From positions 1 through 51,095 of the forward strand of contig JBBDUH010000018.1 of NCBI GenBank assembly GCA_040904005.1: DNA of 51,095 nucleotides. Reading direction: 5' to 3'. Positions 8,360-33,996 of the stretch are shown here, one piece after another. The translations under genes and the position numbers were made by a program. This DNA comes from Minisyncoccota bacterium. Its GTDB lineage: Bacteria > Patescibacteriota > Minisyncoccia > Phycocordibacterales > SW-6-46-9. A model generated the notes under the pieces. The model was not told the origin of the DNA. It worked only from the letters and a program-made list of their open reading frames with translations, and did not search any database. Every line of letters starts with the position of its first letter. Positions within the stretch are counted from its first letter, which is position 1.

Positions 8360-8426
8360 AATTTTAGCTCTTTAGCTGCTGACTTCACGCTACTAGATCT
8401 AAATGGAGCGTTCTGCAACGCGCTTT

Positions 8427-8454: not shown

Positions 8455-8464
8455 TAGTTTTTCT

Positions 8465-9288: not shown

Positions 9289-9531
9289 ATGGCTAACACG
9301 TGCCCAATTACAAACAAAAGCACCAATACCGCCGGTGGATACTCCAACCGGACGCGTGCTACCCAGTTCAACCCAACCGGCAAGCGTTATCAGAAAGTGA
9401 ACCTACAGAAGAAGAAGATTTATGTTCCAGAGCTGGATCAGTACATCCCTTTAAGGGTTTCCACTAAGGGGCTAAAGATCATCCAGAAAAAAGGTGCCTA
9501 CCGTGCACTCAAGGATGCTGGGATTATTTAG
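9289..9531 (+). CDS. rpmB: 50S ribosomal protein L28
   Basis: The track ORF starts at GTG 9241. It is trimmed to ATG 9289 (MANTCPITNK..RVSTKGLKIIQKKG), which aligns with the L28 N-terminus. Confidence 0.85.
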   Translation: MANTCPITNKSTNTAGGYSNRTRATQFNPTGKRYQKVNLQKKKIYVPELDQYIPLRVSTKGLKIIQKKGAYRALKDAGII

Positions 9532-9564
9532 AGGGTTCTAGGAAGCGTGGATTTAGGATATTAG

Positions 9565-9593
9565 AAAAACCGCCGTTTGGCGGTTTTTGTTTA
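9565..9593 (+). terminator. Rho-independent terminator after rpmB
   Basis: ACCGCC-GTTT-GGCGGT followed by TTTTTGTTT. An A-run upstream makes it bidirectional. Confidence 0.85.
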
Positions 9594-9622
9594 TCCCGCA
9601 CTTTTTCTAAAATAAGCATCTA

Positions 9623-9651
9623 TTTTGTGCAACACTCAGTGTTGCACAAAA
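9623..9651. repeat. GTGCAACA palindrome, copy 1
   Basis: TTTTGTGCAACAC-TCA-GTGTTGCACAAAA followed by AGAGTACAA. A near-identical copy is at 15934-15954. Confidence 0.6.
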
Positions 9652-9688
9652 AGAGTACAAATATAGAAATGTGGCAAGATGTAAGTTT

Positions 9689-10564
9689 TTATTTTTGCCG
9701 GCGCACCTCGCGCCCATTACTGATGAAGACAATGGTGCCCAGATCGCAGGTGCACAATGTTTCCGCACCGATGGAAACCAGCCGACCAAGCACCGTATCG
9801 GTTGGGTGGCCATAGGGGTTGTTGGCGCCAGCGGAGATAACAGCAAACGCTGGGGAAGCAGCGGCCAGAAAGCTTTCGTCCGAGGATGTATCTGAGCCGT
9901 GATGGCCAACCTTGAGCACATCGACATCGATCTGTTCAGCCAGCTGACCGACCACAAACCCCTCCATCACCTGTGAACTGTCGCCCGTAAAGAGCCAACT
10001 GGTCTCACCGTAAATGAGCTTCATGATCAGCGAGCTGTCGTTGGTATCAGCGGGAACGTGGCCAGCCAAAGGAAACAAAATCTGGAGATAAGCCTCATCA
10101 CCGAGAGAGACGACATCGCCGCGGGAAACCTGACGCACCGTGGCTCCTTCAGATTTCTCTTGAGTGGTGGCTTCTAGAAGCGCCATGTAATCACTCGTCT
10201 CACTAACCTGGGCCGGGAGAATAACGTGGCCGACATCATACTCCTCCAGCACCGTGACCAGCCCACCGATGTGATCTGCATCAGCATGGGTGGCAATAAT
10301 CATATCAATTGAACGATCGTAAAACGGTAGCGCTCGTGAAAGCGCCCGATCGACAGAACGAAAGCGACCACCATCAATCAGTACCTGCACACCAGACGGC
10401 GTCTCGATCAGAGTTGCGTCACCTTGACCAACATCAAGAAAGGAGACAACCAACTCATCATTACTGGCAGCAATGGCTAGCTGCACCAAAATCAAAACAA
10501 GGATCAAGCTACCGATGATAATCCCGGCAGCTGCTAACCCAGAAATAACGCGTGGTTTCTTCAT
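9689..10564 (-). CDS. ComEC-type metallo-beta-lactamase domain protein with N-terminal TM anchor
   Basis: Track ORF trimmed to MKKPRVISGL.. (ATG 10564). Contains the MBL motif THADADHIGG and ..LDVGQGDA.., typical of the ComEC C-terminal domain. Confidence 0.8.
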   Translation of the reverse strand: MKKPRVISGLAAAGIIIGSLILVLILVQLAIAASNDELVVSFLDVGQGDATLIETPSGVQVLIDGGRFRSVDRALSRALPFYDRSIDMIIATHADADHIGGLVTVLEEYDVGHVILPAQVSETSDYMALLEATTQEKSEGATVRQVSRGDVVSLGDEAYLQILFPLAGHVPADTNDSSLIMKLIYGETSWLFTGDSSQVMEGFVVGQLAEQIDVDVLKVGHHGSDTSSDESFLAAASPAFAVISAGANNPYGHPTDTVLGRLVSIGAETLCTCDLGTIVFISNGREVRRQK

Positions 10565-10645
10565 TACTCTTAGTATAGCAACTACATATATCGTGTAACG
10601 TGTATCGTGTAGCAAGTCTGTTAGACTCTGAGTCTGACAGGCAAG

Positions 10646-10673
10646 ACAAAAACCGCCAAAAGGCGGTTTTTTA
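10646..10673. terminator. Bidirectional rho-independent terminator
   Basis: AAAAACCGCC-AAAA-GGCGGTTTTTT. Confidence 0.8.
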
Positions 10674-10689
10674 TCCTTAAAGATAACAC

Positions 10690-10812
10690 TCCTATTTTGT
10701 TCGGACTTCGCAGAGCGAGCAGGCATGGTCTCCGACTTTAGTCGGAGGAGCGAGCCCGAGACTGAGAGAGCGTCGCCGCTGGCGGCGCTACTCGTGCCGG
10801 AACAAAATACAC
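10690..10812. repeat. GC-rich structured intergenic insert
   Basis: Long-range stem ATTTTGTTCGG / CCGGAACAAAAT encloses hairpins CTCCGAC-TTTA-GTCGGAG and AGCGTCGCCGC-TGG-CGGCGCT. It is GC-rich inside an AT-rich spacer. Confidence 0.5.
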
Positions 10813-10818
10813 GGAGGG

Positions 10819-11619
10819 TTATCGTACCTGATCATAGAGAGCAAAACGCACGGCACCAGTAGCTGGATCCTTCAAGAGCTTTACTGCCTGCTGACCTTCA
10901 GCCCAGGCCGGAGTCTGCTTCACCGCATTCGGTGAGTAGAAGTGACGCGTGGTTAGTGCCAACGGGCGAGAACTTTCCGGAGCTAAGTAAACCTCCTTTG
11001 CTATTGCTAGCGCTGTCTCCCAGGCATATCCTTCACTAGAGTACCAACGCGAGATGTTATGCTCGTAGCGTTTATCATATGGGTTAAGCCCAGAGAACTG
11101 ACGCGAGTGCTTGGCAACAGATTCATAGGTACGGCCTGTGTAACCAGTGTCAACACGGTTACGAACCACCCAACCAATAATGCGTTGCTCATCAGCACGC
11201 TTGGTTTCTGAGTACACAATTCGCGCCAACCAGAGAATTTCACGTTTATCAGTTTGTGTCATTACAGGATTGTCTGTCTGACTACGCTCGGCCCGTTTCT
11301 GTGCATCCTTATGCACCTCCTTTGGGGTCTTAGCATTCGTACGCTCGAGTGTAGAAAGCACGTTATAACCACTTACCTTCTCAGAAGCAGCTAGAGCAAC
11401 TGAGGTAAAGTTGGCCATCCAGCCACCAGCGAGGGCGAGTTTTGTATTTGTATCTTCTGCTTCCGCTGCCACCATCTCTATGGTTGCAGCCTCAGCAACT
11501 TGTGTATTGTAAAGAACGCCTCCTGCAGTGAACTGAAGACTGACAGTAGCTCCAACAAAGAGAGCAAAAAAGGCCAGTCCAAGTGTGTAAACCTCGATCG
11601 TATCCGAATGATAATTCAT
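10819..11619 (-). CDS. SleB/CwlJ-like cell-wall hydrolase (Hydrolase_2) with N-terminal TM segment
   Basis: 266 aa. The C-terminal half (LARIVYSETK..VVRNRV..RQFSG) matches the Hydrolase_2 pattern. Confidence 0.7.
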   Translation of the reverse strand: MNYHSDTIEVYTLGLAFFALFVGATVSLQFTAGGVLYNTQVAEAATIEMVAAEAEDTNTKLALAGGWMANFTSVALAASEKVSGYNVLSTLERTNAKTPKEVHKDAQKRAERSQTDNPVMTQTDKREILWLARIVYSETKRADEQRIIGWVVRNRVDTGYTGRTYESVAKHSRQFSGLNPYDKRYEHNISRWYSSEGYAWETALAIAKEVYLAPESSRPLALTTRHFYSPNAVKQTPAWAEGQQAVKLLKDPATGAVRFALYDQVR

Positions 11620-11699
11620 ACCAAATACTTAAGGGTAATGTCGTACAGGCGCGTCGGTCTTTAACAGAAAAAGCACCCTATATAAGGGCGCTGATAGCT

Positions 11700-11727
11700 A
11701 CTATAGCAGACCAGTAAAGTTTGTCAA
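11700..11727 (-). promoter_or_regulatory. Candidate promoter of the SleB-like gene
   Basis: The - strand has TTGACA (11722-11727), a 16-nt spacer and TATAGT (11700-11705). Two more TTGACA copies lie just upstream. Confidence 0.5.
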
Positions 11728-11779
11728 GTAATGTCAATACTTTTTAAAATTGTCAAGAAAACCGGTTATTTTATAATCT

Positions 11780-13279
11780 CTATTCTTCGGGCGCATTATA
11801 TAAAATAAGGCTAATTATAACAATGAAATATACACCCAAAACTGCCCAGAGCGACACATTCCCTACTGTAGCTGTAGCAGCAGAAAAATTGGCTAATTTT
11901 TCTGTGATGGTAAAGATGTACTCCGAGACAACATAGGCACCAGCAGCAAATGGCAGTACAAAAGGCGGTAAAATCCAGGCCACAGCAGCTGTCAGCGTTC
12001 CGACCGCCATCAAAAGGGGTACGACCGGCAGCACGAGCAGGTTTGCTACCACCGATACAATAGAAATCTCACCCGTCAGAAAGGCTAGAAACGGCAGTAC
12101 CGCCAGCTGAGCCGAGATGGTGGCGGTCGCGGCTTCGCGCACCCCAAACCGCTCCGGAAGCATGGTCAGCCAGCTGGAAACACCGTCACCGAAGCTAAGT
12201 AACCCAGCGGTGGCGATAGCGGAGAGTTGGAAGGAGGGATCAAACAGCAGGATGTGAGGATTAACCAGTACCATCGCAAACGCAGCAACCAGCAACCCCC
12301 GACTGGCCGCATACTGCCGTGAAGATACTCGCCCTACCAGCGCAATAATGGCCATAATACTCGCTCGCACCACTGTTGGTGTCAGACCCACCAGAAGAGC
12401 AAAGGCGGCAATGCCGAGTCCGGCCACACCCGCCGCCACGGCCAGCGGCAGACCAACAAACAAGAGAGCAGCGCCAATCGCCACAGCCACAATCGTTACG
12501 TTGTAGCCAGAAAGAACCACAATATGGATCAGGCCGGTATCGCGAAAGGCAGTTTGCAGCTCCTCACCTAGGGCATCCTCGGCGCCCAGGAGAACTCCAC
12601 CAGTCAGCGCAGCATGCGGATCGGGGATGTGCTCATGCAGCAAACTCAAAAGCTTTGTGCGCAGACGCGCCAGAGACCGCTTAATGGAATTGCCCCCATC
12701 ATGGGAAAGAACAGTAACCTGCGGTCGGCTCAGCTCATAAAAAACCTCATTGCGAGCCAGGTAACGCGGATAATTAAAGAGCCGGCCGGTATCCGTCTGG
12801 AAGGCTGATGGCTTGGCCAGCGGTCCCCGCATCTCAACCACGTCTCCATATTCTAAGCGCGGGAAGTGCCCAGCATACACCACTGCTCGAGACTCGCCTC
12901 GAGCGACCTCATCCGAACCGGCAAGCGAAACACCTCCAATCGCAACCGTTAGGTTCTGGCCAGACTCGGTAATCTCCGGAACATCCGCAACCTCTCCGCG
13001 CACAATCACCGACTGGCCGACCTGACTGTCAAACACTGTTTCGTTCGGCTGATTAATATCAAATCCAGTCCGTAGCAGGCCGGCTGCTACCGCTAGAAGC
13101 AGCACCAAGACCAAAGTTATCTGCCGACTATCACCACTCGACACCCAGACATAAAAAAGACAACCGACCGAAAGTACTAATAGAAGCCCGGCCAGACCAA
13201 AGGCTGGTACACCCAAGAGAGCAAGCACAACGCCAACGAAGAAGCCACCGACTGCGCTGTAGAGATAAATTGTCGCCAT
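11780..13279 (-). CDS. comEC: ComEC/Rec2 DNA-uptake channel protein (OB/DUF4131 plus competence domain, no MBL domain)
   Basis: 499 aa and polytopic, with the competence-domain motif GLIHIVVLSGYNV. It ends before any MBL domain. Confidence 0.85.
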   Translation of the reverse strand: MATIYLYSAVGGFFVGVVLALLGVPAFGLAGLLLVLSVGCLFYVWVSSGDSRQITLVLVLLLAVAAGLLRTGFDINQPNETVFDSQVGQSVIVRGEVADVPEITESGQNLTVAIGGVSLAGSDEVARGESRAVVYAGHFPRLEYGDVVEMRGPLAKPSAFQTDTGRLFNYPRYLARNEVFYELSRPQVTVLSHDGGNSIKRSLARLRTKLLSLLHEHIPDPHAALTGGVLLGAEDALGEELQTAFRDTGLIHIVVLSGYNVTIVAVAIGAALLFVGLPLAVAAGVAGLGIAAFALLVGLTPTVVRASIMAIIALVGRVSSRQYAASRGLLVAAFAMVLVNPHILLFDPSFQLSAIATAGLLSFGDGVSSWLTMLPERFGVREAATATISAQLAVLPFLAFLTGEISIVSVVANLLVLPVVPLLMAVGTLTAAVAWILPPFVLPFAAGAYVVSEYIFTITEKLANFSAATATVGNVSLWAVLGVYFIVIISLILYNAPEE

Positions 13280-23450: not shown

Positions 23451-24053
23451 ATGTCTAATTTAATTCCAACAGTAATAGAAAAAACCAATCGTGGCGAGCG
23501 AGCCTACGACATCTACTCGCGCCTCTTAAAGGAGCGCATTGTCTTTCTGGGTGGACCGATCTACGACCAGGTCGCCAACACCGTCATCGCCCAGCTCCTC
23601 TATCTAGAGAGTGAGGCACCCGACAAAGACATCTCACTTTACATCAACTCTCCAGGTGGATCCGTCACCGCTACATTGGCGATGCTCGACACGATGAACT
23701 ACGTCCAGTGTGACATCCAGACCATCTGTGTTGGTATCGCTGCCTCTGGTGGTGCTGTGCTTCTCTCAGCCGGAGAGAAAGGTAAACGCTTCTGCCTTGA
23801 AAACTCCGAGGTGATGATCCACCAACCCCACGGTGGTGCCGAAGGACAAGCGACAGATATTGAGATCACGGCCAAGCACATTCTGAAAACGCGTGAACGT
23901 CTCAATGAGATCATGGCCGAGAATACCGGGCAGACCGTCAAGAAGATCCAGGACGATGTCGACCGCGACTTCTTTATGACCGCTGAGGAAGCCAAGGGGT
24001 ACGGGATTATTGATGAAATCATGCAGAGTAAGAAAAAGAAATCTACAAAGTAG
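23451..24053 (+). CDS. clpP: ATP-dependent Clp protease proteolytic subunit
   Basis: 200 aa. Contains [20 protein letters not shown], and the catalytic Ser, His and Asp lie in conserved contexts ([13 protein letters not shown]). Confidence 0.97.
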
Positions 24054-24138: not shown

Positions 24139-24166
24139 TTGACAAGTTTACTAAATATAGTATTAT
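24139..24166 (+). promoter_or_regulatory. Cassette promoter, copy 1
   Basis: TTGACAAG (24139-), a 16-nt spacer and TATTAT (24161-24166). The whole stretch 24104-24200 is homologous to 24646-24745. Confidence 0.55.
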
Positions 24167-24200
24167 AGCACCAGAAGTTGAATAGAAACGTTCATTAAAA

Positions 24201-24596
24201 ATGGTGATTGTTATGAGCACTAAATCATTAATGTTCTCTGTGGTCGCTTCCTTTTCGACCATCCCAGGATTTTTCCTGTCATATTTTTTAGTATTCTGGC
24301 CAGCTGCCATGTTTTTCTCTCTTTTATTTGGTGTATTTATCGCCACAATTGAGACAAAATACGGTCATATATCGTGGCTAGATATATGTGCAATGGGAGT
24401 AGGGATGTTCATCGGAGCCGGCGTTCTTGGCTCAGTAGATATGGCTTTTATGAACCAGTATTTCAACAATATGTTTATAGCGACTATTGTTAACGCCGGG
24501 GTCATTCCAGCAGGATTTCTCTTCGGAGTAGGAATACATGACTTTTGGCACTGGATAAAAAGAGCTGCATCAAAACAAATGTTTCTGTCTATTTAA
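24201..24596 (+). CDS. hypothetical polytopic membrane protein (131 aa)
   Basis: ORF with about 4 hydrophobic helices. The start is uncertain (ATG 24201 or 24213). No family recognised. Confidence 0.55.
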   Translation: MVIVMSTKSLMFSVVASFSTIPGFFLSYFLVFWPAAMFFSLLFGVFIATIETKYGHISWLDICAMGVGMFIGAGVLGSVDMAFMNQYFNNMFIATIVNAGVIPAGFLFGVGIHDFWHWIKRAASKQMFLSI

Positions 24597-24619
24597 TTAA
24601 ATAGACACGAAATAATCCA

Positions 24620-24652
24620 AAGTCGCTTGTGTAACCACGAGCGGCTTTTTTA
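24620..24652 (+). terminator. Cassette terminator, copy 1
   Basis: GTCGCTTGTG-TAAC-CACGAGCGGC followed by TTTTTT. A near-identical terminator is at 25079-25110. Confidence 0.75.
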
Positions 24653-24680
24653 ATACCTACACATGGCTGTAATCTCTGGC

Positions 24681-24708
24681 TTGACAAGTATTTACAATAT
24701 GTTATTCT
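24681..24708 (+). promoter_or_regulatory. Cassette promoter, copy 2
   Basis: TTGACAAG (24681-), a 16-nt spacer and TATTCT (24703-24708). Confidence 0.5.
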
Positions 24709-24762
24709 AATAGTAGAAGTTAAAATAAAAATGTTCATTCAAACACTCGAGAGGATAAGATA

Positions 24763-25053
24763 ATGAAAAAACACATTGTAATACAAAGCATAGCTACATT
24801 CGCACCTGCTGCAGAAAAAAGCTATACTGTCGCCAATACAAAGATTACAACCTTTTTTGCAGAAAAAGCCGAAGATGTACTAGACGAGTGGGAACACATC
24901 TGTAAAGAAATGGAACCTTTTGGTTACTATTGTAATTCCGAAACGAAAACAATATATCTGTTTCCAGACGGAACAAAAGAAGAGTTTGCAGAAGATTCTG
25001 ATGTAAACAAACTCTTTCTCGAGATATTAAACAAAAGATTTCGACCTAGATAA
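24763..25053 (+). CDS. hypothetical protein (96 aa)
   Basis: ORF with SD GAGAGGA. No family recognised. Confidence 0.55.
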   Translation: MKKHIVIQSIATFAPAAEKSYTVANTKITTFFAEKAEDVLDEWEHICKEMEPFGYYCNSETKTIYLFPDGTKEEFAEDSDVNKLFLEILNKRFRPR

Positions 25054-25078
25054 ACCGATCTTTTTCTAATAATTCAAA

Positions 25079-25110
25079 GCCGCTTGTGTAACCACGAGCG
25101 GCTTTTTTAT
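25079..25110 (+). terminator. Cassette terminator, copy 2
   Basis: GCCGCTTGTG-TAAC-CACGAGCGGC followed by TTTTTT. Confidence 0.8.
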
Positions 25111-25292
25111 TTTTACGATCCTTATGACGATACACGCTTTGCGCTCCACGCTACACATTTTGCGTTCCATGATTGCTTCTGGCTTTATGCTGCAGCTTGT
25201 CGTACTATGAAAACACGACTGATTACCCGCGGAACCGCCACGCCTGCATACCTGAGAAACTGAACAATTTTTATAAACTTACGAGAGTTCCC

Positions 25293-26813
25293 ATGACAAT
25301 ACTGATAACCGCCACCATCGCTGGCCTTGTGGGTCTTGCTGCCGGTTTCGCTCTGCGTCGCTTAATCCTGCTTTCACAACGCTCAACTCTTGAACTGGAG
25401 CTGAAGGAAAAGAGATTAAAGGCCAAGGAGGAAGCCGCCGAAGTGAAGAAGCAGGCAGAAAAAGAAGCAGCGAAGATAACTAAATCAGCACAAAGAGAGG
25501 CCGGGAGGCTGCGGCAGGATCTGGCTGCAGAAAAGTCTGGAGTAACCGAGGCACAAACCAATCTCACAACAGAGCGTAACCGTTTGGAGGAGGATAAAGC
25601 AGTTCTGAAAAGTAGGAAAGAGCAGCTCGAAGAAGCCAAATCTAAACTTGCGAAACGTCACACAGAACTGGAGCTTGAGCTGGCCGAAGTGGCCGGCATA
25701 AGCAAATCTGAGGCCCGCAGGATTCTGTTGACCGAGCTCCGGGAGCAGCACGCCGACGATCTGGCCATCCGCCGTAAAAAGCTTGAAACCTACAACAAAG
25801 AGAGTCTGGAAGAACGAGCCCGTGAGATTCTTGCCAGCGTTCTTCAGCGCCTCTCCCGTTCTGTCGATCCAGAAATTCTTTCTACTAAGGTCACACTAAG
25901 CAACGACGATCTCAAAGGGAAGATAATCGGTAAGGAGGGCCGCAACATTCGCGCCTTCCAGCAGGCCACCGGAGTTGAGGTCATCATCGATGAGACGCCA
26001 GAAACTGTCACCATCTCTTCCTACGACCCGATCCGTAGAGCTATCGCCAAGTACGCTCTCGATCTTCTCTTGGAGGACGGCCGGGTTCAGCCGGCTCGTA
26101 TTGAGCAGTTTGTTGCTGACGCCAAGGAGAAGGTGAATCGTATCACCAAGGAGCGCGGTGAGGCAGCGGCCCAGGAGCTTGGGCTTATGTCACTGGACAG
26201 TCGCATCATTGCCATCCTCGGTCGGCTGCACTTTCGCACCAGCTACGGACAGAATGTGCTTGAGCACTCCATTGAGGCTGCTCATATTGCCCAGATGCTT
26301 GCTTATGAGCTCGGTGCTGATCCACAGATTGCCAAGGCTGGCGCGCTTGTCCATGACATTGGCAAGGCTGTTGACCATGAGCTCTCCGGCTCACATGTTG
26401 ATATCGGTATTCATATTCTCACTAAATTTAGTGCAGACGAGAAAGTCATCAGCGCAATGAAGTCACATCACGACGACTGCCCACACGCCTCCTTAGAGGC
26501 CGTGATTGTTCAGGTTGCTGACAGCGTTTCTGGTGCTCGCCCCGGTGCCCGCAAGCAGTCGATCGAGAGCTACATCAGTCGCCTCCAGGAGCTGGAAAAG
26601 ATTGCTGATGAAATCGAGGGTGTGGTTAATTCATACGCCATCGAGGCCGGTCGGGAGGTGCGCGTGTTTGTGAACTCTAGCCAGGTGAATGAATCGCAGG
26701 CCTATCAAATTGCACGCCAAATTGCCACCCAGATCGAGAGTCGAGTCAGCTATCCGGGTGAGGTGAAGGTGCATGTCATCCGCGAAACCCGCCTGACACA
26801 CTACGCGCGCTAA
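25293..26813 (+). CDS. rny: ribonuclease Y
   Basis: The track ORF starts at 25173. It is trimmed to ATG 25293 (MTILITATIAGLVGLAAGF.., a TM anchor). Contains a coiled coil, a KH domain (GKIIGKEGRNIRAF) and an HD domain (HDIGK). Confidence 0.93.
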   Translation: MTILITATIAGLVGLAAGFALRRLILLSQRSTLELELKEKRLKAKEEAAEVKKQAEKEAAKITKSAQREAGRLRQDLAAEKSGVTEAQTNLTTERNRLEEDKAVLKSRKEQLEEAKSKLAKRHTELELELAEVAGISKSEARRILLTELREQHADDLAIRRKKLETYNKESLEERAREILASVLQRLSRSVDPEILSTKVTLSNDDLKGKIIGKEGRNIRAFQQATGVEVIIDETPETVTISSYDPIRRAIAKYALDLLLEDGRVQPARIEQFVADAKEKVNRITKERGEAAAQELGLMSLDSRIIAILGRLHFRTSYGQNVLEHSIEAAHIAQMLAYELGADPQIAKAGALVHDIGKAVDHELSGSHVDIGIHILTKFSADEKVISAMKSHHDDCPHASLEAVIVQVADSVSGARPGARKQSIESYISRLQELEKIADEIEGVVNSYAIEAGREVRVFVNSSQVNESQAYQIARQIATQIESRVSYPGEVKVHVIRETRLTHYAR

Positions 26814-27203
26814 GCACTAGCGCGAACTTCTAATACCTAATTACTAATTTCTAAAATCACTAGTATCAGCAGTGGTTATTATTACTGGGCCTGCCCCGTT
26901 AGAGAACGCTGGAGACGCTGAACCTTGTATGAAGATTATTCATTTTTCTTTAACGGGGTTGACCCGTGTTAAACAAAATCAAAGATTTTATTTCGCCTTC
27001 ACATTCTTAACCTTAGTTTTCTCAAGATTTTTTACCGAAAGCATACATTATCGTTTTTTTGATATAAAATGCTGCGAAATGTTTAACCGGGTTGACATAA
27101 AACTATACATAATGACAATGTTGCGACGGAGCGGTTTTTCCGCTATTATTTAGACAGAGGTTAACAGATATAACCTTTTTATTAGCGCTAATTCCTTATA
27201 TTT

Positions 27204-27512
27204 ATGGCTCAAATCAACAAGTCAGATCTCGTTGAGATGATCTACGATGAAATTGAAGGATGCACCAAGGCCGACGCCAAGCGTGTGATGGAGCGCATTG
27301 TCGACACCATCACCGACACACTAGCAAACGCTGAGGAGGTATCAATCGCCGGACTCGGAATCTTCAAGTCTCGTATTCGACAGGCACGTACTGCTCGCAA
27401 CCCACAAACGGGTGAAGAGATTGAGGTGCCAAAGATGCGCGTACCCAAGTTCCGACCAGCAAAAGCGCTGAAGGACGCCGTGAAGGACAAGCGCCTTGAT
27501 AAGGAGGAGTAG
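27204..27512 (+). CDS. hup: HU/IHF-family DNA-binding protein
   Basis: 102 aa with GLGIFKSRIRQARTARNPQTGEEIEVP, the beta-arm motif. Confidence 0.93.
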   Translation: MAQINKSDLVEMIYDEIEGCTKADAKRVMERIVDTITDTLANAEEVSIAGLGIFKSRIRQARTARNPQTGEEIEVPKMRVPKFRPAKALKDAVKDKRLDKEE

Positions 27513-27544
27513 TTTTACCCCTTCCTTATCCCACTTATACAAAT

Positions 27545-27568
27545 GCCTGGCTCACGCCGGGCTTTTGT
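27545..27568 (+). terminator. Terminator after hup
   Basis: GCCTGGC-TCAC-GCCGGGC followed by TTTTG. Confidence 0.7.
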
Positions 27569-27584
27569 ATTGGCTTTTTGTATA

Positions 27585-27616
27585 AATAAAACCCCAGAAA
27601 CTTACATTCCTGGGGT
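27585..27616 (-). terminator. Terminator of the - strand 422-aa operon
   Basis: The - strand has CCCCAG-loop-CTGGGG followed by TTTTATTT. Confidence 0.55.
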
Positions 27617-27636
27617 AATAAAATTAAACTTGCTAT

Positions 27637-27798
27637 CTACTCATCCTCTCCATCTTCGGCAGAAAAATTGGACGGAAGATCATCAGAGGATATTGGTTCC
27701 GCGACGCTAGCTGTACCGCGCCGAGCAAATATTGGTCGTTCCTCTTCATTCTTCTTTGATGATTTTTCATTATCTATATTTGCATCTGTATCTAACAT
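27637..27798 (-). CDS. hypothetical acidic micro-protein (53 aa, below track cutoff)
   Basis: Hand-translated as MLDTDANIDNEKSSKKNEEERPIF..SAEDGEDE. Starts 11 nt after the stop of the 422-aa gene. No SD. Confidence 0.3.
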   Translation of the reverse strand: MLDTDANIDNEKSSKKNEEERPIFARRGTASVAEPISSDDLPSNFSAEDGEDE

Positions 27799-27809
27799 GT
27801 TGTGCTGTT

Positions 27810-29078
27810 TTATAAGCTGCGATTAATCACTTCCCCGACTATTTCGAGAAGTGCGTTCTGATCAATATCATACATTGCGGTAATATTATTGTCAATCTCA
27901 ATCTCTAATTCTCGTTGATCAGCTGGGAGTTCCTTATATGTATCATGGCGGACAATAATCTTGCTAATTATTTTATACGGAATTTCTTTTTTTAAGCCAC
28001 TGTTCTTTATCACAGACGTCAGTTCAAGAGCTATATCTTTGGTACAATCCACCAGATCTTTTACGTACGCTGGGTCTTCTGTGTCTATCCAGTCAATTCC
28101 GTACTCCGCGCGTGACTCAATCACTACAGACATAAGTTCATCTATTTTTTTGTTAGTCGCGACCGAATCCTCTGCCAGCAATGCAAAAACATATACCTGA
28201 TTCTTGAACACCTCATACTCTCGCGTAGATAAATCATCTTTCATGTCCTGTAAACTAGTAAGCCCACGAATTTTCTCGATTGTCCTTGGATAAAAACTAG
28301 ACTTCGCAATGGATATTAGCCCAAGTTGAGCCAAATCTTCTCGGTCTTCTTTATTTGGTGAAGATTGATCCAGACTCATTATGATATCCGCGATTATTTG
28401 CTCCGCTTCTGGCTGCACCTCCATAAAGGTGTGAGGATAGCTTGCCCTGTTACGCAGTCTTTCGGCTAGCTCTATGTGTTGCTCGCGAATATCCTCAGGT
28501 GTTTTGTAATTTAAAGAGTTGCCCACTTGAACTAACTTCGCAATATGAATACTGTCACCACCATCTTTGGCAGGCAAGCGACCAGTCAAAACATAGTCAG
28601 TAGCGTTGCTGGCATCGATCTCATCAATAAAGATAACTTCTTTATTCAAAAGCTCATCATTTTTCCTCAGTTCACGCTCAATAGAACGAGCGGTTGTTTG
28701 TATACCTCTCTCCCAAATCTCTTTACTAAAAAATGCTTCGACTTGATCTGGATAAATAGAAGCAACCATCTTTACAAAATCTTGCCGACAGATACTTGTT
28801 GGACCATCCTCCTGAGTCAAGATTTCACGCGTTGCAATATTTTGAACGCCGGCACGTAAAATATTTATTTCATTTTCTACCTGTGGAATAGCTGTTCCTT
28901 CACTTAGTTCTTTAAAACGTTTAATTTTCTCGAGAATATTCAGCTGATTTTCAGGAGATATTTCGCTATGTTTTTCTAAATCACTCAAATACTCGGCTTC
29001 TAGTGCTCTCTGATTTCCTTCCTCTTCTATCGCAAAGTTTGGTTTCTTTTTACCAAAATTAGATTCGAAACCTTTCAT
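27810..29078 (-). CDS. hypothetical protein (422 aa), AT-rich orphan
   Basis: Long uninterrupted ORF. No catalytic or nucleotide-binding motif recognised. Confidence 0.65.
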   Translation of the reverse strand: MKGFESNFGKKKPNFAIEEEGNQRALEAEYLSDLEKHSEISPENQLNILEKIKRFKELSEGTAIPQVENEINILRAGVQNIATREILTQEDGPTSICRQDFVKMVASIYPDQVEAFFSKEIWERGIQTTARSIERELRKNDELLNKEVIFIDEIDASNATDYVLTGRLPAKDGGDSIHIAKLVQVGNSLNYKTPEDIREQHIELAERLRNRASYPHTFMEVQPEAEQIIADIIMSLDQSSPNKEDREDLAQLGLISIAKSSFYPRTIEKIRGLTSLQDMKDDLSTREYEVFKNQVYVFALLAEDSVATNKKIDELMSVVIESRAEYGIDWIDTEDPAYVKDLVDCTKDIALELTSVIKNSGLKKEIPYKIISKIIVRHDTYKELPADQRELEIEIDNNITAMYDIDQNALLEIVGEVINRSL

Positions 29079-29094
29079 ATTTTGATTTTAGCAT

Positions 29095-29130
29095 AAAAAA
29101 ACCGCATGATGCTTAATTGCACCATGCGGC
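29095..29130 (-). terminator. Terminator downstream of the 99-aa gene
   Basis: The - strand has GCCGCATGGTGC-loop-GCATCATGCGG followed by TTTTTTT. Confidence 0.6.
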
Positions 29131-29275
29131 TTAATTTAATAATTTTAGTCTAGCCATGATCTTCTTACGAAGTCAGTTTCAGACCTTCTGGTGCCAAGAG
29201 GTGTGACAATATATACATATCGTCACATTCATACCCCTCCGAATCCTTAGCTCATTTTTGGTTAATCACCAAAGT

Positions 29276-29575
29276 CTAAAGAATTGGCAAGTCGAGCTTT
29301 TCACGAAAGAGGTCTTTCACCTCTTCGCTACTCATCTCTTTCTGCGGCTTCTCCAAACCCACCCAAAGAGTGCTCGCGTCACGCGGGAATCGGTCATGTA
29401 AATGACCATAGTCTGCCTGCAAATTTTTGCGAGCGACTACAGCACGGACATGATTAATTCGTGACTGGCATGTACTGCAATGACCTTGCTCGGCCACCTC
29501 GAAGTATAATTTGCCGTCGTGCTCTACGATTTCGCGACTGGTTGACCAACCGGATAGTCGGACAAACATAGACAT
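29276..29575 (-). CDS. hypothetical protein (99 aa) with CxxC..H motif
   Basis: Track ORF 29276..29629 trimmed to ATG 29575 (MSMFVRLSGW..), which avoids overlap with the ankyrin gene. Contains HCSTCQSRINH. No family recognised. Confidence 0.45.
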   Translation of the reverse strand: MSMFVRLSGWSTSREIVEHDGKLYFEVAEQGHCSTCQSRINHVRAVVARKNLQADYGHLHDRFPRDASTLWVGLEKPQKEMSSEEVKDLFREKLDLPIL

Positions 29576-29591
29576 GTGTTTATTTAAGATG

Positions 29592-30446
29592 TTAGGCACG
29601 CTTCTTTGCACAAACGGCTGCAATTTCACGATAACCTCGCATTGCTGCTAGGTCATAAGCTCTGAAGCCGTTAGTGTTTACCGCTTCAGTATCTGCACCA
29701 GCCTCAAGAAGAACCTTGATAACTCGAAGGCCATCCTGGTTCTGGACTGCATACATCAAAGGTGTTGTCTTTCCTTCATTTGAGGCATTCACATCAGCCC
29801 CGTGCTGGATAAGCAAATTGACAACATCAGCATGTGTATTAAAGGAAGCGGCCAAGATTGCCGTCCAGTCCTTGGTTATGGAGCCATCAACATCAGCCCC
29901 ATTTTCAAGAAGAAGATTCACAACCTTTACATGGCCTCCGAAGGATGCTTTTAACAGCGGTTTGAATCCACTATTATTTGCAGCATTAATCTTGGAGCCT
30001 TGCCAAATAAGAAATTTAACAACATCTTCGTGCCCTCTTTGTGATGCATACATCAACGGTGCCCAGCCCCTTGAGTCTGACTCGTTAATATCTAACTTCA
30101 TGATACAAACGAAAATCTCAACAGTGCCAAGATCACCAACCTCAGCTGCATACATTAGTGGAGTTTTCCCCTCTTTATCAGAGAGCCCCACACAGGCACC
30201 ATGCTTCAACAGAAGCCAGATACCATCTACATATCCGTTCTTAATGACATATATGAGTGGTGTTTTGCCAGCCTCGTTGCGAGCGTTCACATCAGCTCCA
30301 GCTGTTATCGCTTGCCTGATAGCCTTCTTATTATCATCCTCCGCTGCCTTCAGAAGTTCTTTGGTTGCTTGAGACAGCCCAGAATTATCTGAAACCATTC
30401 CAATAACCACTGTCAGAGCAGCAAGAATTAAAACAAAAGTAGTCAT
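29592..30446 (-). CDS. ankyrin-repeat protein with N-terminal signal/anchor helix
   Basis: Trimmed to ATG 30446, behind a strong SD (AAAGGAGGGTTAC). Starts MTTFVLILAALTVVIGMV, followed by about 7-8 ANK repeats (..G.TPLMYA...G....V..LL..GA..N). Confidence 0.85.
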   Translation of the reverse strand: MTTFVLILAALTVVIGMVSDNSGLSQATKELLKAAEDDNKKAIRQAITAGADVNARNEAGKTPLIYVIKNGYVDGIWLLLKHGACVGLSDKEGKTPLMYAAEVGDLGTVEIFVCIMKLDINESDSRGWAPLMYASQRGHEDVVKFLIWQGSKINAANNSGFKPLLKASFGGHVKVVNLLLENGADVDGSITKDWTAILAASFNTHADVVNLLIQHGADVNASNEGKTTPLMYAVQNQDGLRVIKVLLEAGADTEAVNTNGFRAYDLAAMRGYREIAAVCAKKRA

Positions 30447-30493
30447 GTAACCCTCCTTTGGTTGGTTAGTATTTATTTTTAAAAAGAACAAAG

Positions 30494-30610
30494 TGGAGAT
30501 GCCGGGAGTCGAACCCGAGTCCAGACAGACTATACCCGTAGTGGGCACCGCGTATAATCACGATGGTCGTTTTAACGCGTCATCTGGCCGTCGAAAGCCA
30601 AATCATCCCC
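30494..30610 (-). ncRNA. ssrA: tmRNA-like gene reduced to the tRNA-like domain (~117 nt)
   Basis: The - strand reads GGGGATGATTTGGCTTTCGACGG..GGACTCGGGTTCGACTCCCGGCATCTCCA. It has a 7-bp acceptor stem with a G3:U70 wobble, T arm UCGGG-UUCGACU-CCCGG and a P2-like helix. Only 48 nt lie inside that helix, with no pseudoknots or tag ORF. Confidence 0.7.
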
Positions 30611-30687
30611 AGTTTTAAATGTGCTATAACCATCGTTTCGATCCACAAATCTTTATGAACCGAAGAATGGTGCAGAAGTAAAGCTTT

Positions 30688-30819
30688 TTACTTCTGCGGG
30701 TTAAGGTTAGTTTCGTCCGTGTTTCTCAACTCAGAAGAATCAAGAAACGGTGCAATCACTCCGGCTAATACATAAATTATGAAGAGTGTCACAAAGAAAC
30801 CTGTAATAATCATATCCAT
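30688..30819 (-). CDS. hypothetical single-TM micro-protein (43 aa, below track cutoff)
   Basis: Hand-translated as MDMIITGFFVTLFIIYVLAGVIAPFLDSSELRNTDETNLNPQK. SD AAGGTGG lies 5 nt upstream. A hairpin (GCAGAAGTA..TACTTCTGC) spans the stop. Confidence 0.4.
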   Translation of the reverse strand: MDMIITGFFVTLFIIYVLAGVIAPFLDSSELRNTDETNLNPQK

Positions 30820-31051
30820 CACAACCACCTTTTGTTTTTTTTGATTTAAAGAACTTTTTCAGTTTGTGATCACCATCGAAATGATAAGCACAAAAGAAAG
30901 CAGGATTTATTGACATGATGTCAGTGGGTTCCTGCGAACCGTTGTGTGGCAGATTGTCCGCGTGCGGGACGTGCCGTGCCAGCGGCAGCCGGTTTAGAAT
31001 TCGCAGCTACTGGTCTTTGTAGCTGCTCTTCCTCAAGCGGTGAACAAGACT

Positions 31052-31222
31052 CTAGCGAGTCGAGTTCCCCATCGGTGTGAAGATAATTCGCTTGTCCTGA
31101 GCGAGTGCTCTGCGGAGAACGAGCTTGTGAAACCCGTGCTTCTCCAGCAGTTCGTCAGTACGGCGAGCTAGCTCTGCGCGAGTTAGCTGCTCGGAATTAC
31201 CTCGATCGTTTCGTGTGCTCAT
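31052..31222 (-). CDS. hypothetical small protein (56 aa, below track cutoff)
   Basis: Hand-translated as MSTRNDRGNSEQLTRAELARRTDELLEKHGFHKLVLRRALAQDKRIIFTPMGNSTR. SD GGGGGT is present. Confidence 0.35.
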   Translation of the reverse strand: MSTRNDRGNSEQLTRAELARRTDELLEKHGFHKLVLRRALAQDKRIIFTPMGNSTR

Positions 31223-31489
31223 ACAACCCCCTGTTTTGATTAGTTAGCGTATCGTGTAAAGGCTAGCGGTTTGGAATCCTCTAATGGTATATCCACCACA
31301 GAGTTATCCTTGCTTTCGTTTAAGAGAGAAGAATTTTCTCAGCTTAAAGTACTCGTGTTCACTCCTTCCTTATGAGATAGAGCAAGCAAAGATGGCTACT
31401 TAACGAAAACCATCCTATGCACATCGAATGCCGAATTTCGCCCGGCAGCTCCCTTTTAAAGAAGTTTTTCGATAAGTGCAGCCGTCCGC

Positions 31490-31588
31490 CCGGCTCCTGC
31501 CATTCTCCATCTGAGACAGGCAAGGAATTTGGCACAGAAGCCCTACAAACTGTAGGCTACTCTTGTGCCAAACTCCTTGCGGAGCCGG
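31490..31588. ncRNA. Long imperfect hairpin, candidate structured RNA of unknown class
   Basis: CCGGCTCC..GCAAGGA.TTTGGCACA..CCCTACA-AAC-TGTAGG..TGTGCCAAA.TCCTTGC.GGAGCCGG. About 30 paired positions with a 22-nt one-sided bulge. The strand is undetermined. Confidence 0.35.
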
Positions 31589-31856
31589 CAATGAGCGTAT
31601 TGTCACAGCCATCATGTAAAAAGATCAGGTCAGCGAGCCGCAAGCTTGTTTTTGCTTATTAACTCGTAGACATTGACTAACTTATCAGAACCTTATTTTT
31701 TTGTCAAGTCTTTTTGTCATTTACTTTTCTTTTTTATTAATATCTGGCTTATATAAGCCTGTTTTATATATACATAATATGTTATTTTCTATAAACAAGC
31801 ATACCCACAGAGTTCTAAAAAGATGACAAGACTGAGAAAGTTTATGTAATTTGTGC

Positions 31857-31884
31857 TTGACAAGATTCTACTATCTGCTAAACT
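31857..31884 (+). promoter_or_regulatory. Candidate promoter of a non-coding/leader transcript
   Basis: TTGACAAG (31857-), a 16-nt spacer ending TGc and TAAACT (31879-31884). Confidence 0.5.
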
Positions 31885-31965
31885 TCCTAGTGGACGTAAC
31901 CGCACAGAAGGTTGCTCCCTGCGAAGTATTTGTTACTTAAAAACAAAATATTGGAGGTGATACAT

Positions 31966-31977
31966 ATGGGTGACTGA
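31966..31977 (+). other. 3-codon mini-ORF (Met-Gly-Asp-stop) behind a consensus SD
   Basis: GGAGGTGA (31953-31960), 5 nt, then ATG GGT GAC TGA. Confidence 0.4.
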
Positions 31978-32096
31978 AATGATCCTGTACCTAGACTGGG
32001 CTGCTCGAGCTCCAGTTTAGGTGCAGACATATCGCATCCTAAGAACACACTTCTGATTCGCAGAAACTAAAACAACAATCACAAAAAAGGAGGGTT

Positions 32097-32108
32097 ATGT
32101 GCGACTAG
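32097..32108 (+). other. 3-codon mini-ORF (Met-Cys-Asp-stop) behind a consensus SD
   Basis: AAGGAGGG (32087-32094), 2 nt, then ATG TGC GAC TAG. Confidence 0.4.
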
Positions 32109-32250
32109 AAAAACCCAAAATGAGAAGACTCTTTCTTCTCACACGCTCAGTAAACTTGATTCATCGCTGGCAACAAACGCTGCCGTGAGTGAATCATCGA
32201 GCTTTAAATTTGTAACTTTTATTTAGTTACAAAAACAGCTCATTCATAAA

Positions 32251-32283
32251 AGGCCCAGTGTAGCAACAAGCTATACTGGGCCT
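32251..32283 (+). terminator. Terminator/attenuator-like hairpin 30 nt before the TrmB-like gene
   Basis: AGGCCCAGT-loop-ACTGGGCCT followed by TAATTTTA. Confidence 0.5.
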
Positions 32284-32312
32284 TAATTTTATATGCTAGA
32301 CTACAGCCAGCT

Positions 32313-33086
32313 ATGAATACTGAAAAAAAGCTACAAGACTTAGGTTTATCCAACAAAGAGGCTAAGGTTTATCTGGCTCTTTTAGAGCTAAACCAGGCTC
32401 CAGCAAGCGATATTGCCAGGAAGGCACAGCTTAATCGTGCTACCACCTACGTAATACTCGACTCACTTATAGAGAAAGCCTTAGTTAGTACGTATGACCA
32501 GGAAAAGACTACCCAGTACGTAGCCAGTGAGCCGGAAACCCTAAAAAGCTTGGTGAAGGAAAGACAGATAGAGTGGAAAGAGAAAGAAAAAACAGCAGAA
32601 GATCTAATCCCGAGTTTAGAATCAATTCATAATGTAGGTGATGAAAAGCCAACCATCCGCTTCTTTGACGGAGAAAAAGGTTTGGAGCAAAGTGCAGAAG
32701 AATTTTATAAAAATTTCTATAAAGGTAAAGAAACTGTCAAAATCTTTTACTCCCGAGATAGAATTGAGAATAATATCTCCAAAGAACTGTTGGATCACTT
32801 AAAGAATTCTCGTTTGCGCAAAAAAGTCAGGTCAGAAACTATATATAATTATTCAAAAGGAAAGTACGACGATGACACCGGCGACCGTATTAAGGTAAAT
32901 GATGATAAATTCCCAATCTCGATCGACTTAGAGATTTACAGCGACAGAGTACTCATTTCGACACTTAAAGAAAAACTGTCGGCAATCCTGATAAAGGATA
33001 CAGATATTGCCGATTCATTTAAAACCCTTTTTCGCTTAGCACAGATTGGAGCCAAAGTTGAGGAAGAGAAAGAAAATAAAAATTAA
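32313..33086 (+). CDS. TrmB-family transcriptional regulator
   Basis: 257 aa. The N-terminal wHTH (LGLSNKEAKVYLALLELNQAPASDIARKAQLNRATTYVILDSLIEKALV) is typical of TrmB. AT-rich. Confidence 0.8.
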   Translation: MNTEKKLQDLGLSNKEAKVYLALLELNQAPASDIARKAQLNRATTYVILDSLIEKALVSTYDQEKTTQYVASEPETLKSLVKERQIEWKEKEKTAEDLIPSLESIHNVGDEKPTIRFFDGEKGLEQSAEEFYKNFYKGKETVKIFYSRDRIENNISKELLDHLKNSRLRKKVRSETIYNYSKGKYDDDTGDRIKVNDDKFPISIDLEIYSDRVLISTLKEKLSAILIKDTDIADSFKTLFRLAQIGAKVEEEKENKN

Positions 33087-33092
33087 TTAAAT

Positions 33093-33266
33093 GTGCGCGA
33101 TGCGAGACGCTTCGCTATCTCACTCGTCGCTCCGCTCCTCTTTAAGAACCCACGGTTCTCAACACTCGCTTTACCCGCCTTCGGCGAGATAAGCTCACTG
33201 CTCTCCTTTACGGAAAACTATCGTTTTCCGACCCTTTCAATAGCTCGATTCTCCCACTATCTACAC
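33093..33266 (-). repeat. X arm, left (inverted partner of 35385-35533)
   Basis: Core GAGACGCTTCGCTATCTCACTCGTCGCTCCGCTCCTCTTTAAGAACCCACGGTTCTCAAC is near-identical to the reverse complement of 35470-35532. The arm ends in a tRNA 3'-end-like fragment, CGATTCTCCCACTATCTACAC. Confidence 0.7.
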
Positions 33267-33312
33267 AAGAAGCACAAAACCACCCGGAGACCCGGATGGT
33301 TTTGTTGGCTTG

Positions 33313-33504
33313 GTGCGGGATGCGAGAATCGGGGTCAGCTCTCATCAATATTTCTCTTCGTTACACTCGTGAAATATTGTGAGGCTCCTCCCCGGACTCG
33401 TGCGTCGTACTCGCTACGCTGCGTGCGACATCACTCCGTCTTTCGATGTCTCCACACAGGCAAAGAAATTTGCCTGCTCATCCTGCTCGCTCGTGTTACT
33501 CGCT
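33313..33504 (-). repeat. tRNA-Gly(UCC) trailer element plus second copy of the tRNA 3' end
   Basis: 33313-33331 repeats 33505-33523 exactly (19 nt) and is followed by CCA on the - strand. Trailer 33332-33504 is homologous to 35159-35311. Confidence 0.7.
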
Positions 33505-33505
33505 G

Positions 33506-33576
33506 TGCGGGATGCGAGAATCGAACTCGCGACCACAGCTTGGAAGGCTGTTGTTATACCACTTAACCAATCCCGC
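33506..33576 (-). tRNA. tRNA-Gly (anticodon UCC)
   Basis: The - strand reads GCGGGATTGGTTAAGTGGTATAACAACAGCCTTCCAAGCTGTGGTCGCGAGTTCGATTCTCGCATCCCGCA. It forms a full cloverleaf with anticodon loop CU-UCC-AA. CCA is not encoded. Confidence 0.9.
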
Positions 33577-33966: not shown

Positions 33967-33996
33967 TTCTCCAACTCTTAGTCGGGGCACCCGGAC
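33967..33996 (-). repeat. Second copy of the tRNA-Pro 3' end plus flank (30-bp perfect direct repeat)
   Basis: TTCTCCAACTCTTAGTCGGGGCACCCGGAC is identical to 34158-34187. Confidence 0.85.

Follow-up and report, generated by a model that had tools for sequence, protein, structure and literature searches.

A tmRNA homologue reduced to its tRNA-like domain and helix P2 in an accessory islet of a Patescibacteriota genome, with relatives in phage and viral DNA

Trans-translation is regarded as near-universal in bacteria and is pursued as an antibiotic target. We analyzed a 51,095-nt stretch of DNA from a Minisyncoccota bacterium (Patescibacteriota; contig JBBDUH010000018.1 of GenBank assembly GCA_040904005.1), hereafter the window, which carries on its minus strand, at positions 30494–30610, a 117-nt homologue of transfer-messenger RNA (tmRNA, the product of ssrA) with a complete tRNA-like domain (TLD) and helix P2, GGGGAUGAUUUGGCUUUCGACGGCCAGAUGACGCGUUAAAACGACCAUCGUGAUUAUACGCGGUGCCCACUACGGGUAUAGUCUGUCUGGACUCGGGUUCGACUCCCGGCAUCUCCA. 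On balance, this mini-tmRNA is probably a functional, horizontally distributed TLD-only tmRNA mimic that acts with SmpB.

Mycobacteriophage DS6A has a TLD-only tmRNA (PMC4131195), which the tmRNA Website lists as 'Phage__Mycobacterium.9'. The 2025 tmRNA database holds nine unique 'Standard, no CDS' (coding sequence) sequences, including two plastid genes of ~65 bp, DS6A, Nasuia, and the patescibacterium 9FT-COMBO-53-11 sp001772805, and a reductive loss of the mRNA-like domain was proposed for the latter two (PMC11915505). Three 'Standard, no CDS' instances fall in Patescibacteria, for which 5252 standard tmRNA instances are recorded for 6765 genomes; the methods section of the same paper relates that truncated-looking tmRNA genes tend to be discarded by curated pipelines (PMC11915505). 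A first-pass annotation of the window, which held that TLD-only ssrA is known from jakobid mitochondria and not from bacteria, is outdated in view of DS6A (PMC4131195) and of the Nasuia and Patescibacteria entries (PMC11915505). According to the part of PMC4131195 that cites Mao et al. 2009, a TLD-only RNA in E. coli inhibited or competed with standard tmRNA, presumably through SmpB binding, and damped tagging and proteolysis.

We located the DS6A gene at JN698994.1 (L064) 28478–28557, between gp33 and gp34, where the GenBank record leaves it unannotated. It is 80 nt long, with a 5-bp P2 closing a 20-nt loop (ACGAAAACCGCACGCGGUAC), and scores 65.6 bits against R1, a covariance model of viral short forms described below. 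Like the window RNA, which also matches R1, it has a complete TLD with G3:U70, a D-analogue ending in GGUCGAC, and no tag open reading frame (ORF). Its P2 is closed by a short A-rich loop and mini-hairpin module, to which the window RNA has a putative counterpart. The two differ in that P2 directly closes the loop in DS6A, whereas the 117-nt window RNA has a longer P2 and a three-way junction with two hairpins (B and C). In addition, the DS6A gene belongs to a phage genome, and the window copy to an islet, free of phage genes, in the chromosome of a Paceibacteria metagenome-assembled genome (MAG). DS6A also encodes an RtcB-like RNA ligase (gp76). The 'Standard, no CDS' tmRNAs of Nasuia and 9FT-COMBO-53-11 sp001772805 resemble the window gene, by description, as bacterial homologues that apparently have no tag frame, and the three patescibacterial instances belong to the same phylum as the window; however, the database authors treat such tmRNAs as the species' own, and the window gene is part of an accessory islet. 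Jakobid and oomycete mitochondrial tmRNAs (RF02544) likewise have no apparent tag frame and are thought to act with SmpB (PMC11915505). The window gene is one-piece and in the standard order, in contrast to mitochondrial tmRNA, which is usually circularly permuted, in two pieces, and of alphaproteobacterial descent. The CDS-less kind of tmRNA is already represented by DS6A and the 'no CDS' entries, and what is new here is a longer, three-way-junction member in a chromosome of the Candidate Phyla Radiation (CPR).

In a search of the window, the Rfam tmRNA model RF00023 matched positions 30491–30610 (minus strand) over its full length (model positions 1–374) with 57.5 bits against a gathering threshold of 47 (E 5e-20), and 43 nt stood in place of 294 of the 374 model positions. 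This end-to-end match agrees with the first-pass annotation, which had read the locus as a tmRNA homologue reduced to TLD and P2 and had suggested RF00023 and ARAGORN searches. Within the window, the former recovered the gene; the latter called four tRNAs and reported 30494–30610 neither as a tmRNA nor as a tRNA. The parts of the RNA are as follows (L223 is an ortholog described below).

30494..30610, minus strand: whole mini-tmRNA gene, 5′ G at 30610 and discriminator A73 at 30494 (RF00023 and model R1).
30604..30610, minus strand: 5′ strand of the acceptor stem, GGGGAUG, pairing with 30495–30501 and including the G3:U70 wobble (RF00023 alignment, constrained fold).
30590..30603, minus strand: D-loop analogue AUUUGGCUUUCGAC, in which GG and UCGAC are conserved (Rfam and R1 consensus alignment).
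30582..30589, minus strand: 5′ strand of P2, GGCCAGAU, with one C.U mismatch (Rfam/R1 register).
30549..30579, minus strand: inner hairpin B, stem CGCGU/ACGCG, loop UAAAACGACCAUCGUGAUUAU (constrained fold).
30533..30547, minus strand: inner hairpin C, UGCCC-ACUAC-GGGUA (constrained fold).
30523..30530, minus strand: 3′ strand of P2, GUCUGUCU, followed by the conserved GGAC linker at 30519–30522 (RF00023 and R1 alignments).
30502..30518, minus strand: T arm, UCGGG-UUCGACU-CCCGG (RF00023 and R1 alignments), identical in L223.
30495..30501, minus strand: 3′ strand of the acceptor stem, CAUCUCC, with U70 at 30497 (RF00023 alignment, constrained fold).

The acceptor stem with G3:U70, the T arm, and the P2 helix noticed earlier are therefore all present in the RF00023 alignment and the constrained fold, and the fold was more stable than 200 of 200 dinucleotide shuffles (z = −3.7). 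The constrained fold offers an alternative P2 register with CCAGAUGAC (30579–30587) as the 5′ strand, so that the interior enclosed by P2 is 48–51 nt, depending on the register. As had been noticed, this leaves no room for PK1–PK4: the constrained fold has neither these pseudoknots nor substitute hairpins around an ORF, and the ~50 nt inside P2 form two simple hairpins. The loop of hairpin B is rich in A on its 5′ side and contains a small internal stem, CGA/UCG, a layout common to the loci L022, L004, and L215 and to DS6A. The 3′ end reads CUCCA|CUU; CCA is not encoded, contrary to the earlier description of this end, and none of the window's four tRNA genes encodes it either. A U-rich tract follows the acceptor stem.

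Other identities were considered. The gene is not a tRNA-Ala, since the fold has no anticodon arm, ARAGORN made no call, no tRNA model match appeared, and among the Rfam families that share a clan with tRNA it is tmRNA that matched. The two-piece (permuted) tmRNA model RF04321 reached 17.5 bits against a threshold of 47 and covered a different span, and the mitochondrial tmRNA model RF02544 gave no match at E ≤ 1.

Canonical ssrA shares with the window RNA the acceptor stem, alanine identity, D-loop analogue, T arm, and P2a, whereas the window RNA has no PK1, resume codon, tag ORF, stop codon, or PK2–PK4, and therefore cannot serve as a messenger. The best internal frame, GCG UUA AAA CGA CCA UCG UGA (ALKRPS*), extends over the loop of hairpin B and its 5′ strand. 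The first-pass annotation had doubted it as a tag, rightly: the family position that gives UGA in the window is not conserved (among 25 other members, 9 have GCAA, 6 GUGA, and 4 GUGU), and the stretch between the P2 strands of L223 is free of stop codons in all frames and therefore has no tag ORF. Sequence inspection of the interior of another member, L001, likewise revealed no stop codon in any frame. Neither a resume codon nor an ORF or stop codon is conserved, and the RNA has no messenger function. An RNA that would be chargeable and SmpB-binding by its elements and carries no message could serve only as a tag-free rescuer or as a natural inhibitor of the pathway.

The ortholog was found through the ortholog of the ankyrin protein encoded next to the mini-tmRNA (P0124, 78% identical). 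L223 is an 88-nt mini-tmRNA on a contig from a separate sequencing run (SRR32539103), GGGGAUGAACCGGUUUCGAC AGGCUGU GCGGAGGCUUUGCACUCUCGGCAGA ACAGUCU GGAC UCGGGUUCGACUCCCGG CAUCUCCA, which scores 64.3 bits against R1 (E 1e-13) and stands in the gene order of the window: a 56-aa ORF, then the small membrane peptide, the mini-tmRNA, and the ankyrin gene. Nucleotide identity between the window and L223 is 77% in the ankyrin gene, 71% in the 56-aa ORF, 63% in the membrane peptide, and 47%, 75%, and 81% in three non-coding stretches. In contrast, the 3′ TLD is identical at 27 of 27 nt, a run with P ~9e-4 given the 77% background. The 5′ TLD is identical at 17 of 21 positions, allowing a 1-nt length difference in the D-analogue and reading the count directly from the sequences because MAFFT shifted that stretch. 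L223 has U-A where the window has A-U at pairs 5 and 7 of P2, which makes two compensatory double changes. The interiors differ by a 29-nt indel, with hairpins B and C in the window and one irregular hairpin in L223; hairpin C, absent from L223 as part of this indel, is probably dispensable. All the sequence elements by which standard tmRNA is recognised as a tRNA-Ala mimic (G3:U70, A73, T loop, GG of the D-analogue, UCGAC/GGAC elbow, and P2) are intact and under selection, and the messenger half is absent.

Since a shorter ortholog stands in the same context, with its 3′ TLD unchanged and its P2 differences compensatory, the RNA is conserved; it stems neither from misassembly nor from a fresh deletion. 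The source is a MAG, which raises the question of whether a full-length ssrA collapsed during assembly, and the first-pass annotation had named misassembly as a way in which its reading could fail. However, the Logan assembly of run SRR27977661, whose reads are possibly the same as those behind the window, is 100% identical over 24139–33170 (9 kb), another run gave an even shorter ortholog, and dozens of similar genes occur elsewhere; the chance of an artefact is practically negligible. A decaying, non-functional remnant of an internal deletion, kept by chance, would account for the unstable interior with its 29-nt indel, the silence of ARAGORN, and the lack of a predicted promoter. This is nevertheless very unlikely given the invariance of the 3′ TLD against a background of ~60–77%, the compensatory P2 changes, the stable fold, and a plan common to a covarying family of >100 sequences.

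We searched for this family with pattern scans for two TLD halves with a short gap between them. Among 185,579 GTDB species genomes, a set to which the window genome does not belong, a strict pattern returned two true minis (L001 and L004) and two false matches inside full-length tmRNAs. JGI/ENA metagenome contigs yielded 46 loci, among them ~33 unique sequences that represent real 100–125-nt forms. IMG/VR gave five loci of such long forms, and 41 in a later scan, together with at least 120 loci (L066–L185; 97 unique) of short forms of 74–88 nt, and it holds more short forms than were counted. Sixteen of the 20 short-form loci tested passed the Rfam tmRNA threshold (48–80 bits), and ARAGORN called a tRNA at none of the IMG/VR short forms. 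For annotation, it is relevant that Rfam 15 labels mini genes 'tmRNA', while ARAGORN misses them. Several short-form loci, among them L066 and L095, adjoin tRNA genes.

R1 was built from 11 gap-free viral short forms, with no window-related sequence included, and recovered 98 matches in 100 viral loci. In the alignment of these 98, which is fitted to its own model, 95% of the pair cells were standard compared with 66.8% after shuffling, and double-sided changes occupied 491 cells compared with 148 in the shuffles. Such changes occurred in all seven P2 pairs and all three inner-stem pairs (slid controls ≤55%). A register-free count that is independent of the alignment gave 5.28 of 6 P2 positions paired versus 2.6 with mismatched partners, and 73 distinct P2 hexamers were present among 88 short forms. 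MAFFT alignments of the short forms and the inner module had P1 and P2 out of register (59.5% vs 47.7% paired) and were replaced by Infernal realignment. Outside the search pattern, GG and U of the D-analogue (≥90% of 59 viral forms) and AAA of the module were conserved, and so was the GGAC linker (65 of 88 viral short forms), which was not part of the pattern either.

The family is mostly phage-borne. Within 5 kb of the metagenomic and viral long forms, the neighbours are genes typical of phages, namely those for a DnaB-like helicase, UvsX/RecA, gp32, primase, HNH endonucleases, three large terminases, tail proteins, and DNA polymerase A. The 3′ 28 nt of L042, which adjoins an HNH endonuclease gene, are identical to those of the window RNA, and the layout of hairpins B and C is shared. 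One long-form neighbour is a PTH2-type peptidyl-tRNA hydrolase, which is of interest because this enzyme would be needed if a peptidyl-mini-tmRNA dropped off the ribosome. In L008 (IMGVR_UViG_3300010357_001308, a 57-kb viral contig), the mini-tmRNA stands within an array (8298–12734) of at least 10 tRNA genes, and an RNA identical to it occurs on three metagenome contigs (L018, L041, and L048). L001 (JAVVGN010000006.1, 1726–1832) is a 107-nt mini with 93 bits in Rfam from a MAG labelled Caldarchaeales archaeon; its interior resembles a single PK1-type pseudoknot (loop GGCGG with downstream CGCCGCC), it adjoins a gene for a DnaJ-zinc-finger protein in this nominally archaeal bin, and it may be misbinned or viral. 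L004 (SLJB01000156.1, 1996–2114; Balneolaceae MAG) lies between two paralogous, co-directional genes for 650-aa proteins, each of which has both a PcfJ-like domain and ankyrin repeats.

On the window, R1 matched 30494–30610 with 49.7 bits (E 5.4e-9 over 51 kb; model positions 1–79), and its next matches were true tRNAs with 25 and 23 bits. It aligned P1, the D-analogue, P2, the GGAC linker, and the T arm, leaving the 53-nt interior as a local gap. In the short forms, the interior is a module of the form P2 - (U/G)AAAG - CCG CAUG CGG - A(N) - P2′ (consensus UAAAG-CCG-CAUG-CGG-A), in which an A-rich asymmetric internal loop is followed by a capped stem of 3–4 bp. In the long forms, a module of this kind sits on a side hairpin that is closed by a freely covarying stem (for example, CCGCG[AAAGGCCCAUUGCACAAGA]CGCGG, GGAC[GAUUAACGCCCAAGUGAAAA]GUCU, and GCGC[AAUAAACGCCCUAGUGAAAU]GCGU). 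The counterpart in the window is CGCGU[UAAAACGACCAUCGUGAUUAU]ACGCG, with UAAAA-CGA-CCA-UCG-UGA inside the extra stem, and the interior of L223 bears another variant, GGAGGCUUUGCAC. For hairpin B, we used a position weight matrix (PWM) scan in place of a covariance model, which was dropped because MAFFT shifted the stems. With a PWM from 25 other long forms, the window site AAACGACCAUCGUGA (30558–30572) ranked 10th among 102,158 window positions, which equates to P ~0.005 for the ~50 positions that P2 encloses. This result supports, though not overwhelmingly, a presumed homology of the interior. The top PWM scores belong to two strong hairpins at 27545–27570 and 32250–32284, which contain AAAGCCCG/AAGGCCCAG, yet are ordinary terminators (of hupB and in the TrmB-like region), so the loop motif alone is unspecific. 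Canonical ssrA has a conserved P2a-GAA-P2b junction (Rfam consensus gcGAAcac), which the A-rich stretch after P2a in the window resembles and from which that stretch may have descended.

With these sequences, the single-phage case of DS6A becomes a testable class that is conserved in CPR genomes, abundant in viral contigs, and covarying. We did not find the size of the family in viral contigs or the shared P2 module described in the searchable literature, an absence that is no proof of novelty. A wider proposal, which we put forward tentatively and with more doubt than confidence, is that TLD-only mini-tmRNAs form a large, barely catalogued phage and mobile-element family (hundreds in IMG/VR), with ~78-nt and 100–125-nt architectures sharing an A-rich P2 module, that would hijack SmpB, alanyl-tRNA synthetase (AlaRS), and stalled ribosomes so that proteolysis tagging is shut down or circumvented. 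One of them might have been domesticated by some ultra-small Patescibacteria, possibly replacing standard tmRNA there, and a free-standing bacterial lineage would then have ribosome rescue without tags.

The window also carries the 5′ part of a 23S rRNA gene and genes for EF-G, ComEC, RecJ, PGK, TIM, NusA, trigger factor, ClpP (23451–24053), RNase Y, and HU, as well as a tRNA cluster. The features around the mini-tmRNA are as follows.

27517..33315, no strand: lineage-specific islet between hupB (27204–27512) and tRNA-Gly(UCC) (tblastx collinearity, gene tables).
29592..30446, minus strand: ankyrin-repeat gene, 284 aa (Pfam Ank_2, 3e-45), starting 47 nt downstream of the mini-tmRNA; linkage kept in L223.
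30688..30819, minus strand: membrane peptide of ~43 aa, upstream of the mini-tmRNA; same order in L223.
31052..31222, minus strand: 56-aa ORF, upstream of the mini-tmRNA; same order in L223.
33093..33111 (15/19) and 33313..33331 (19/19), minus strand: direct copies of the 3′ end of tRNA-Gly(UCC), between the tRNA gene (33505–33576, minus strand) and the islet.
37614..39122, plus strand: CCA-adding enzyme gene (Pfam PolyA_pol and tRNA_NucTran2_2), 7 kb from the mini-tmRNA.

The islet was delimited with L060 (GCA_040905385.1), a collinear relative on a 784-kb contig whose RNase Y is 64% identical. L060 follows the window from recJ to an NYN-domain gene except for the islet, where 1.2 kb of unrelated DNA replaces window positions 27517–33315 (5.8 kb), and no tmRNA occurs within its 21.5 kb examined. 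The comparison of related loci that the first-pass annotation had called for thus gave one relative that keeps an 88-nt ortholog (L223) and one that lacks the segment and the tmRNA (L060). The contig of the closest relative, L062, ends before the tmRNA position. The islet contains a 422-aa orphan (one distant homologue among 5.8 billion proteins), a 117-aa ORF, the ankyrin gene, the mini-tmRNA, the two small ORFs, and a TrmB-like regulator.

The first-pass annotation had taken the islet to follow the gene and had offered, as its main alternative, that island traffic at ssrA had left a deletion derivative behind. Instead, the mini-tmRNA is inside an accessory islet attached to tRNA-Gly and not at an ancestral ssrA site: the apparent integration scars nearby are tRNA-Gly 3′ ends, and no second copy of the 3′ 23 nt of the tmRNA exists in the window with 3 mismatches allowed, so the gene is internal to the islet and is not an ssrA hit by an island. 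The conservation of the RNA with compensatory changes in L223 and its large structured family also speak against such a derivative. An attachment scar or 3′ fragment of ssrA is ruled out likewise, since both gene halves are present and the 3′ end is unrepeated in the window. The 3′ end of tRNA-Pro is repeated as well, at 33967–33996. The tRNA-Gly and tRNA-Pro 3′-end copies lie 190–410 nt downstream of their genes, inside ~200-nt repeat units that also occur near L060 tRNAs, and by their appearance they are either stacked integration scars, as integrase traffic leaves at tRNA genes, or a repeat element linked to tRNAs.

The same evidence bears on another explanation, according to which the mini-tmRNA is the sole ssrA of a Paceibacteria lineage, vertically inherited, that lost its mRNA-like domain by reductive evolution and performs tag-less rescue with SmpB. 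Its retention in two related genomes, where the 3′ TLD is invariant and P2 has changed in a compensatory way, fits this explanation, as do the CDS-less tmRNAs on record in Patescibacteria (PMC11915505), the lack of a second tmRNA in the 51-kb window, and a 3′ end without encoded CCA, like that of the host tRNA genes. Nevertheless, we consider it unlikely. The segment is missing from the otherwise collinear L060, which is also tmRNA-free at that site, orphan or accessory genes surround the RNA, a full ssrA is the norm in the phylum (the 5252 standard tmRNAs recorded for 6765 genomes), and the architecture matches phage-carried forms. If the mini were indeed the sole ssrA of CPR bacteria, rescue without tagging would suffice for a bacterium; cases that make this question directly testable are still few.

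The linkage to the ankyrin gene, which lies 47 nt downstream on the same strand and keeps this position in L223, would also fit a cis-acting tRNA-like element of the ankyrin transcript, at which RNase P/RNase Z would process the RNA or which would stabilise its 5′ end, instead of a trans-acting rescue RNA, and the L004 mini between two co-directional ankyrin/PcfJ-like genes points the same way. On the other hand, the alanine identity and the SmpB-contacting D-analogue/GGAC region, needless for a processing signal, are fully kept, most family members stand in tRNA arrays or beside unrelated phage genes, and a U-rich tract follows the acceptor stem. We therefore rate a cis-acting role as improbable. 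The ankyrin association, seen at the window and L004 only, which have independent origins, may be a coincidence.

In the favoured reading, a TLD-only tmRNA mimic acting with SmpB, the mini-tmRNA would be transcribed and then matured and trimmed like a tRNA. Because neither it nor any tRNA gene of the window encodes CCA, a CCA-adding enzyme is needed, and the one encoded 7 kb away would add this end. AlaRS would charge the RNA with alanine via G3:U70 and A73, and SmpB and EF-Tu would bind through the intact TLD and P2. Trans-translation could not be completed because there is no resume codon, tag ORF, or stop codon. Two outcomes are conceivable: (a) the nascent chain would be taken from the non-stop ribosome untagged and released by drop-off and peptidyl-tRNA hydrolase or by an ArfB-like or other factor, or (b) SmpB would be titrated and A sites blocked, reducing tagging and proteolysis by the resident tmRNA. 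They are not separable within this reading, and either would shield phage or mobile-element proteins from SsrA-directed ClpXP degradation. If phages do block tagging with such RNAs, this would be a new kind of RNA-based host takeover.

Several observations weigh against the favoured reading. No integrase, phage hallmark, or defence signature was found among the islet proteins, and a mobile origin is suggested by the variability of the locus and the distribution of the family. A consensus sigma-70 promoter was not found upstream of the mini-tmRNA. Neither smpB nor a standard ssrA is present in the 51-kb window (Pfam on 40 ORFs; RF00023), so a role as competitor has no demonstrated target. The loop motif of the window RNA is a moderate match only, with one deviation from the consensus, and in view of the 29-nt indel relative to the ortholog, the inner module may be unconstrained here.

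The scan for promoters and terminators beside the mini-tmRNA gave nothing convincing. The ~1.5 kb upstream of it (30829–32312) are gene-poor, with the conserved 56-aa ORF as the sole gene, and the 1.1 kb of the islet at 31223–32312 hold no convincing gene; a permissive Rfam search of 30611–32320 for a hidden RNA returned chance-level matches only. A 157-aa 'ORF' at 33093–33566, over the tRNA-Gly copies, is spurious. Elsewhere in the window, as in L060, clpX does not adjoin tig-clpP. Between clpP and rny, both genomes encode a small protein (window 24201–24596; L060 9375–9758), and the L060 copy matches the RNA-polymerase alpha C-terminal domain.

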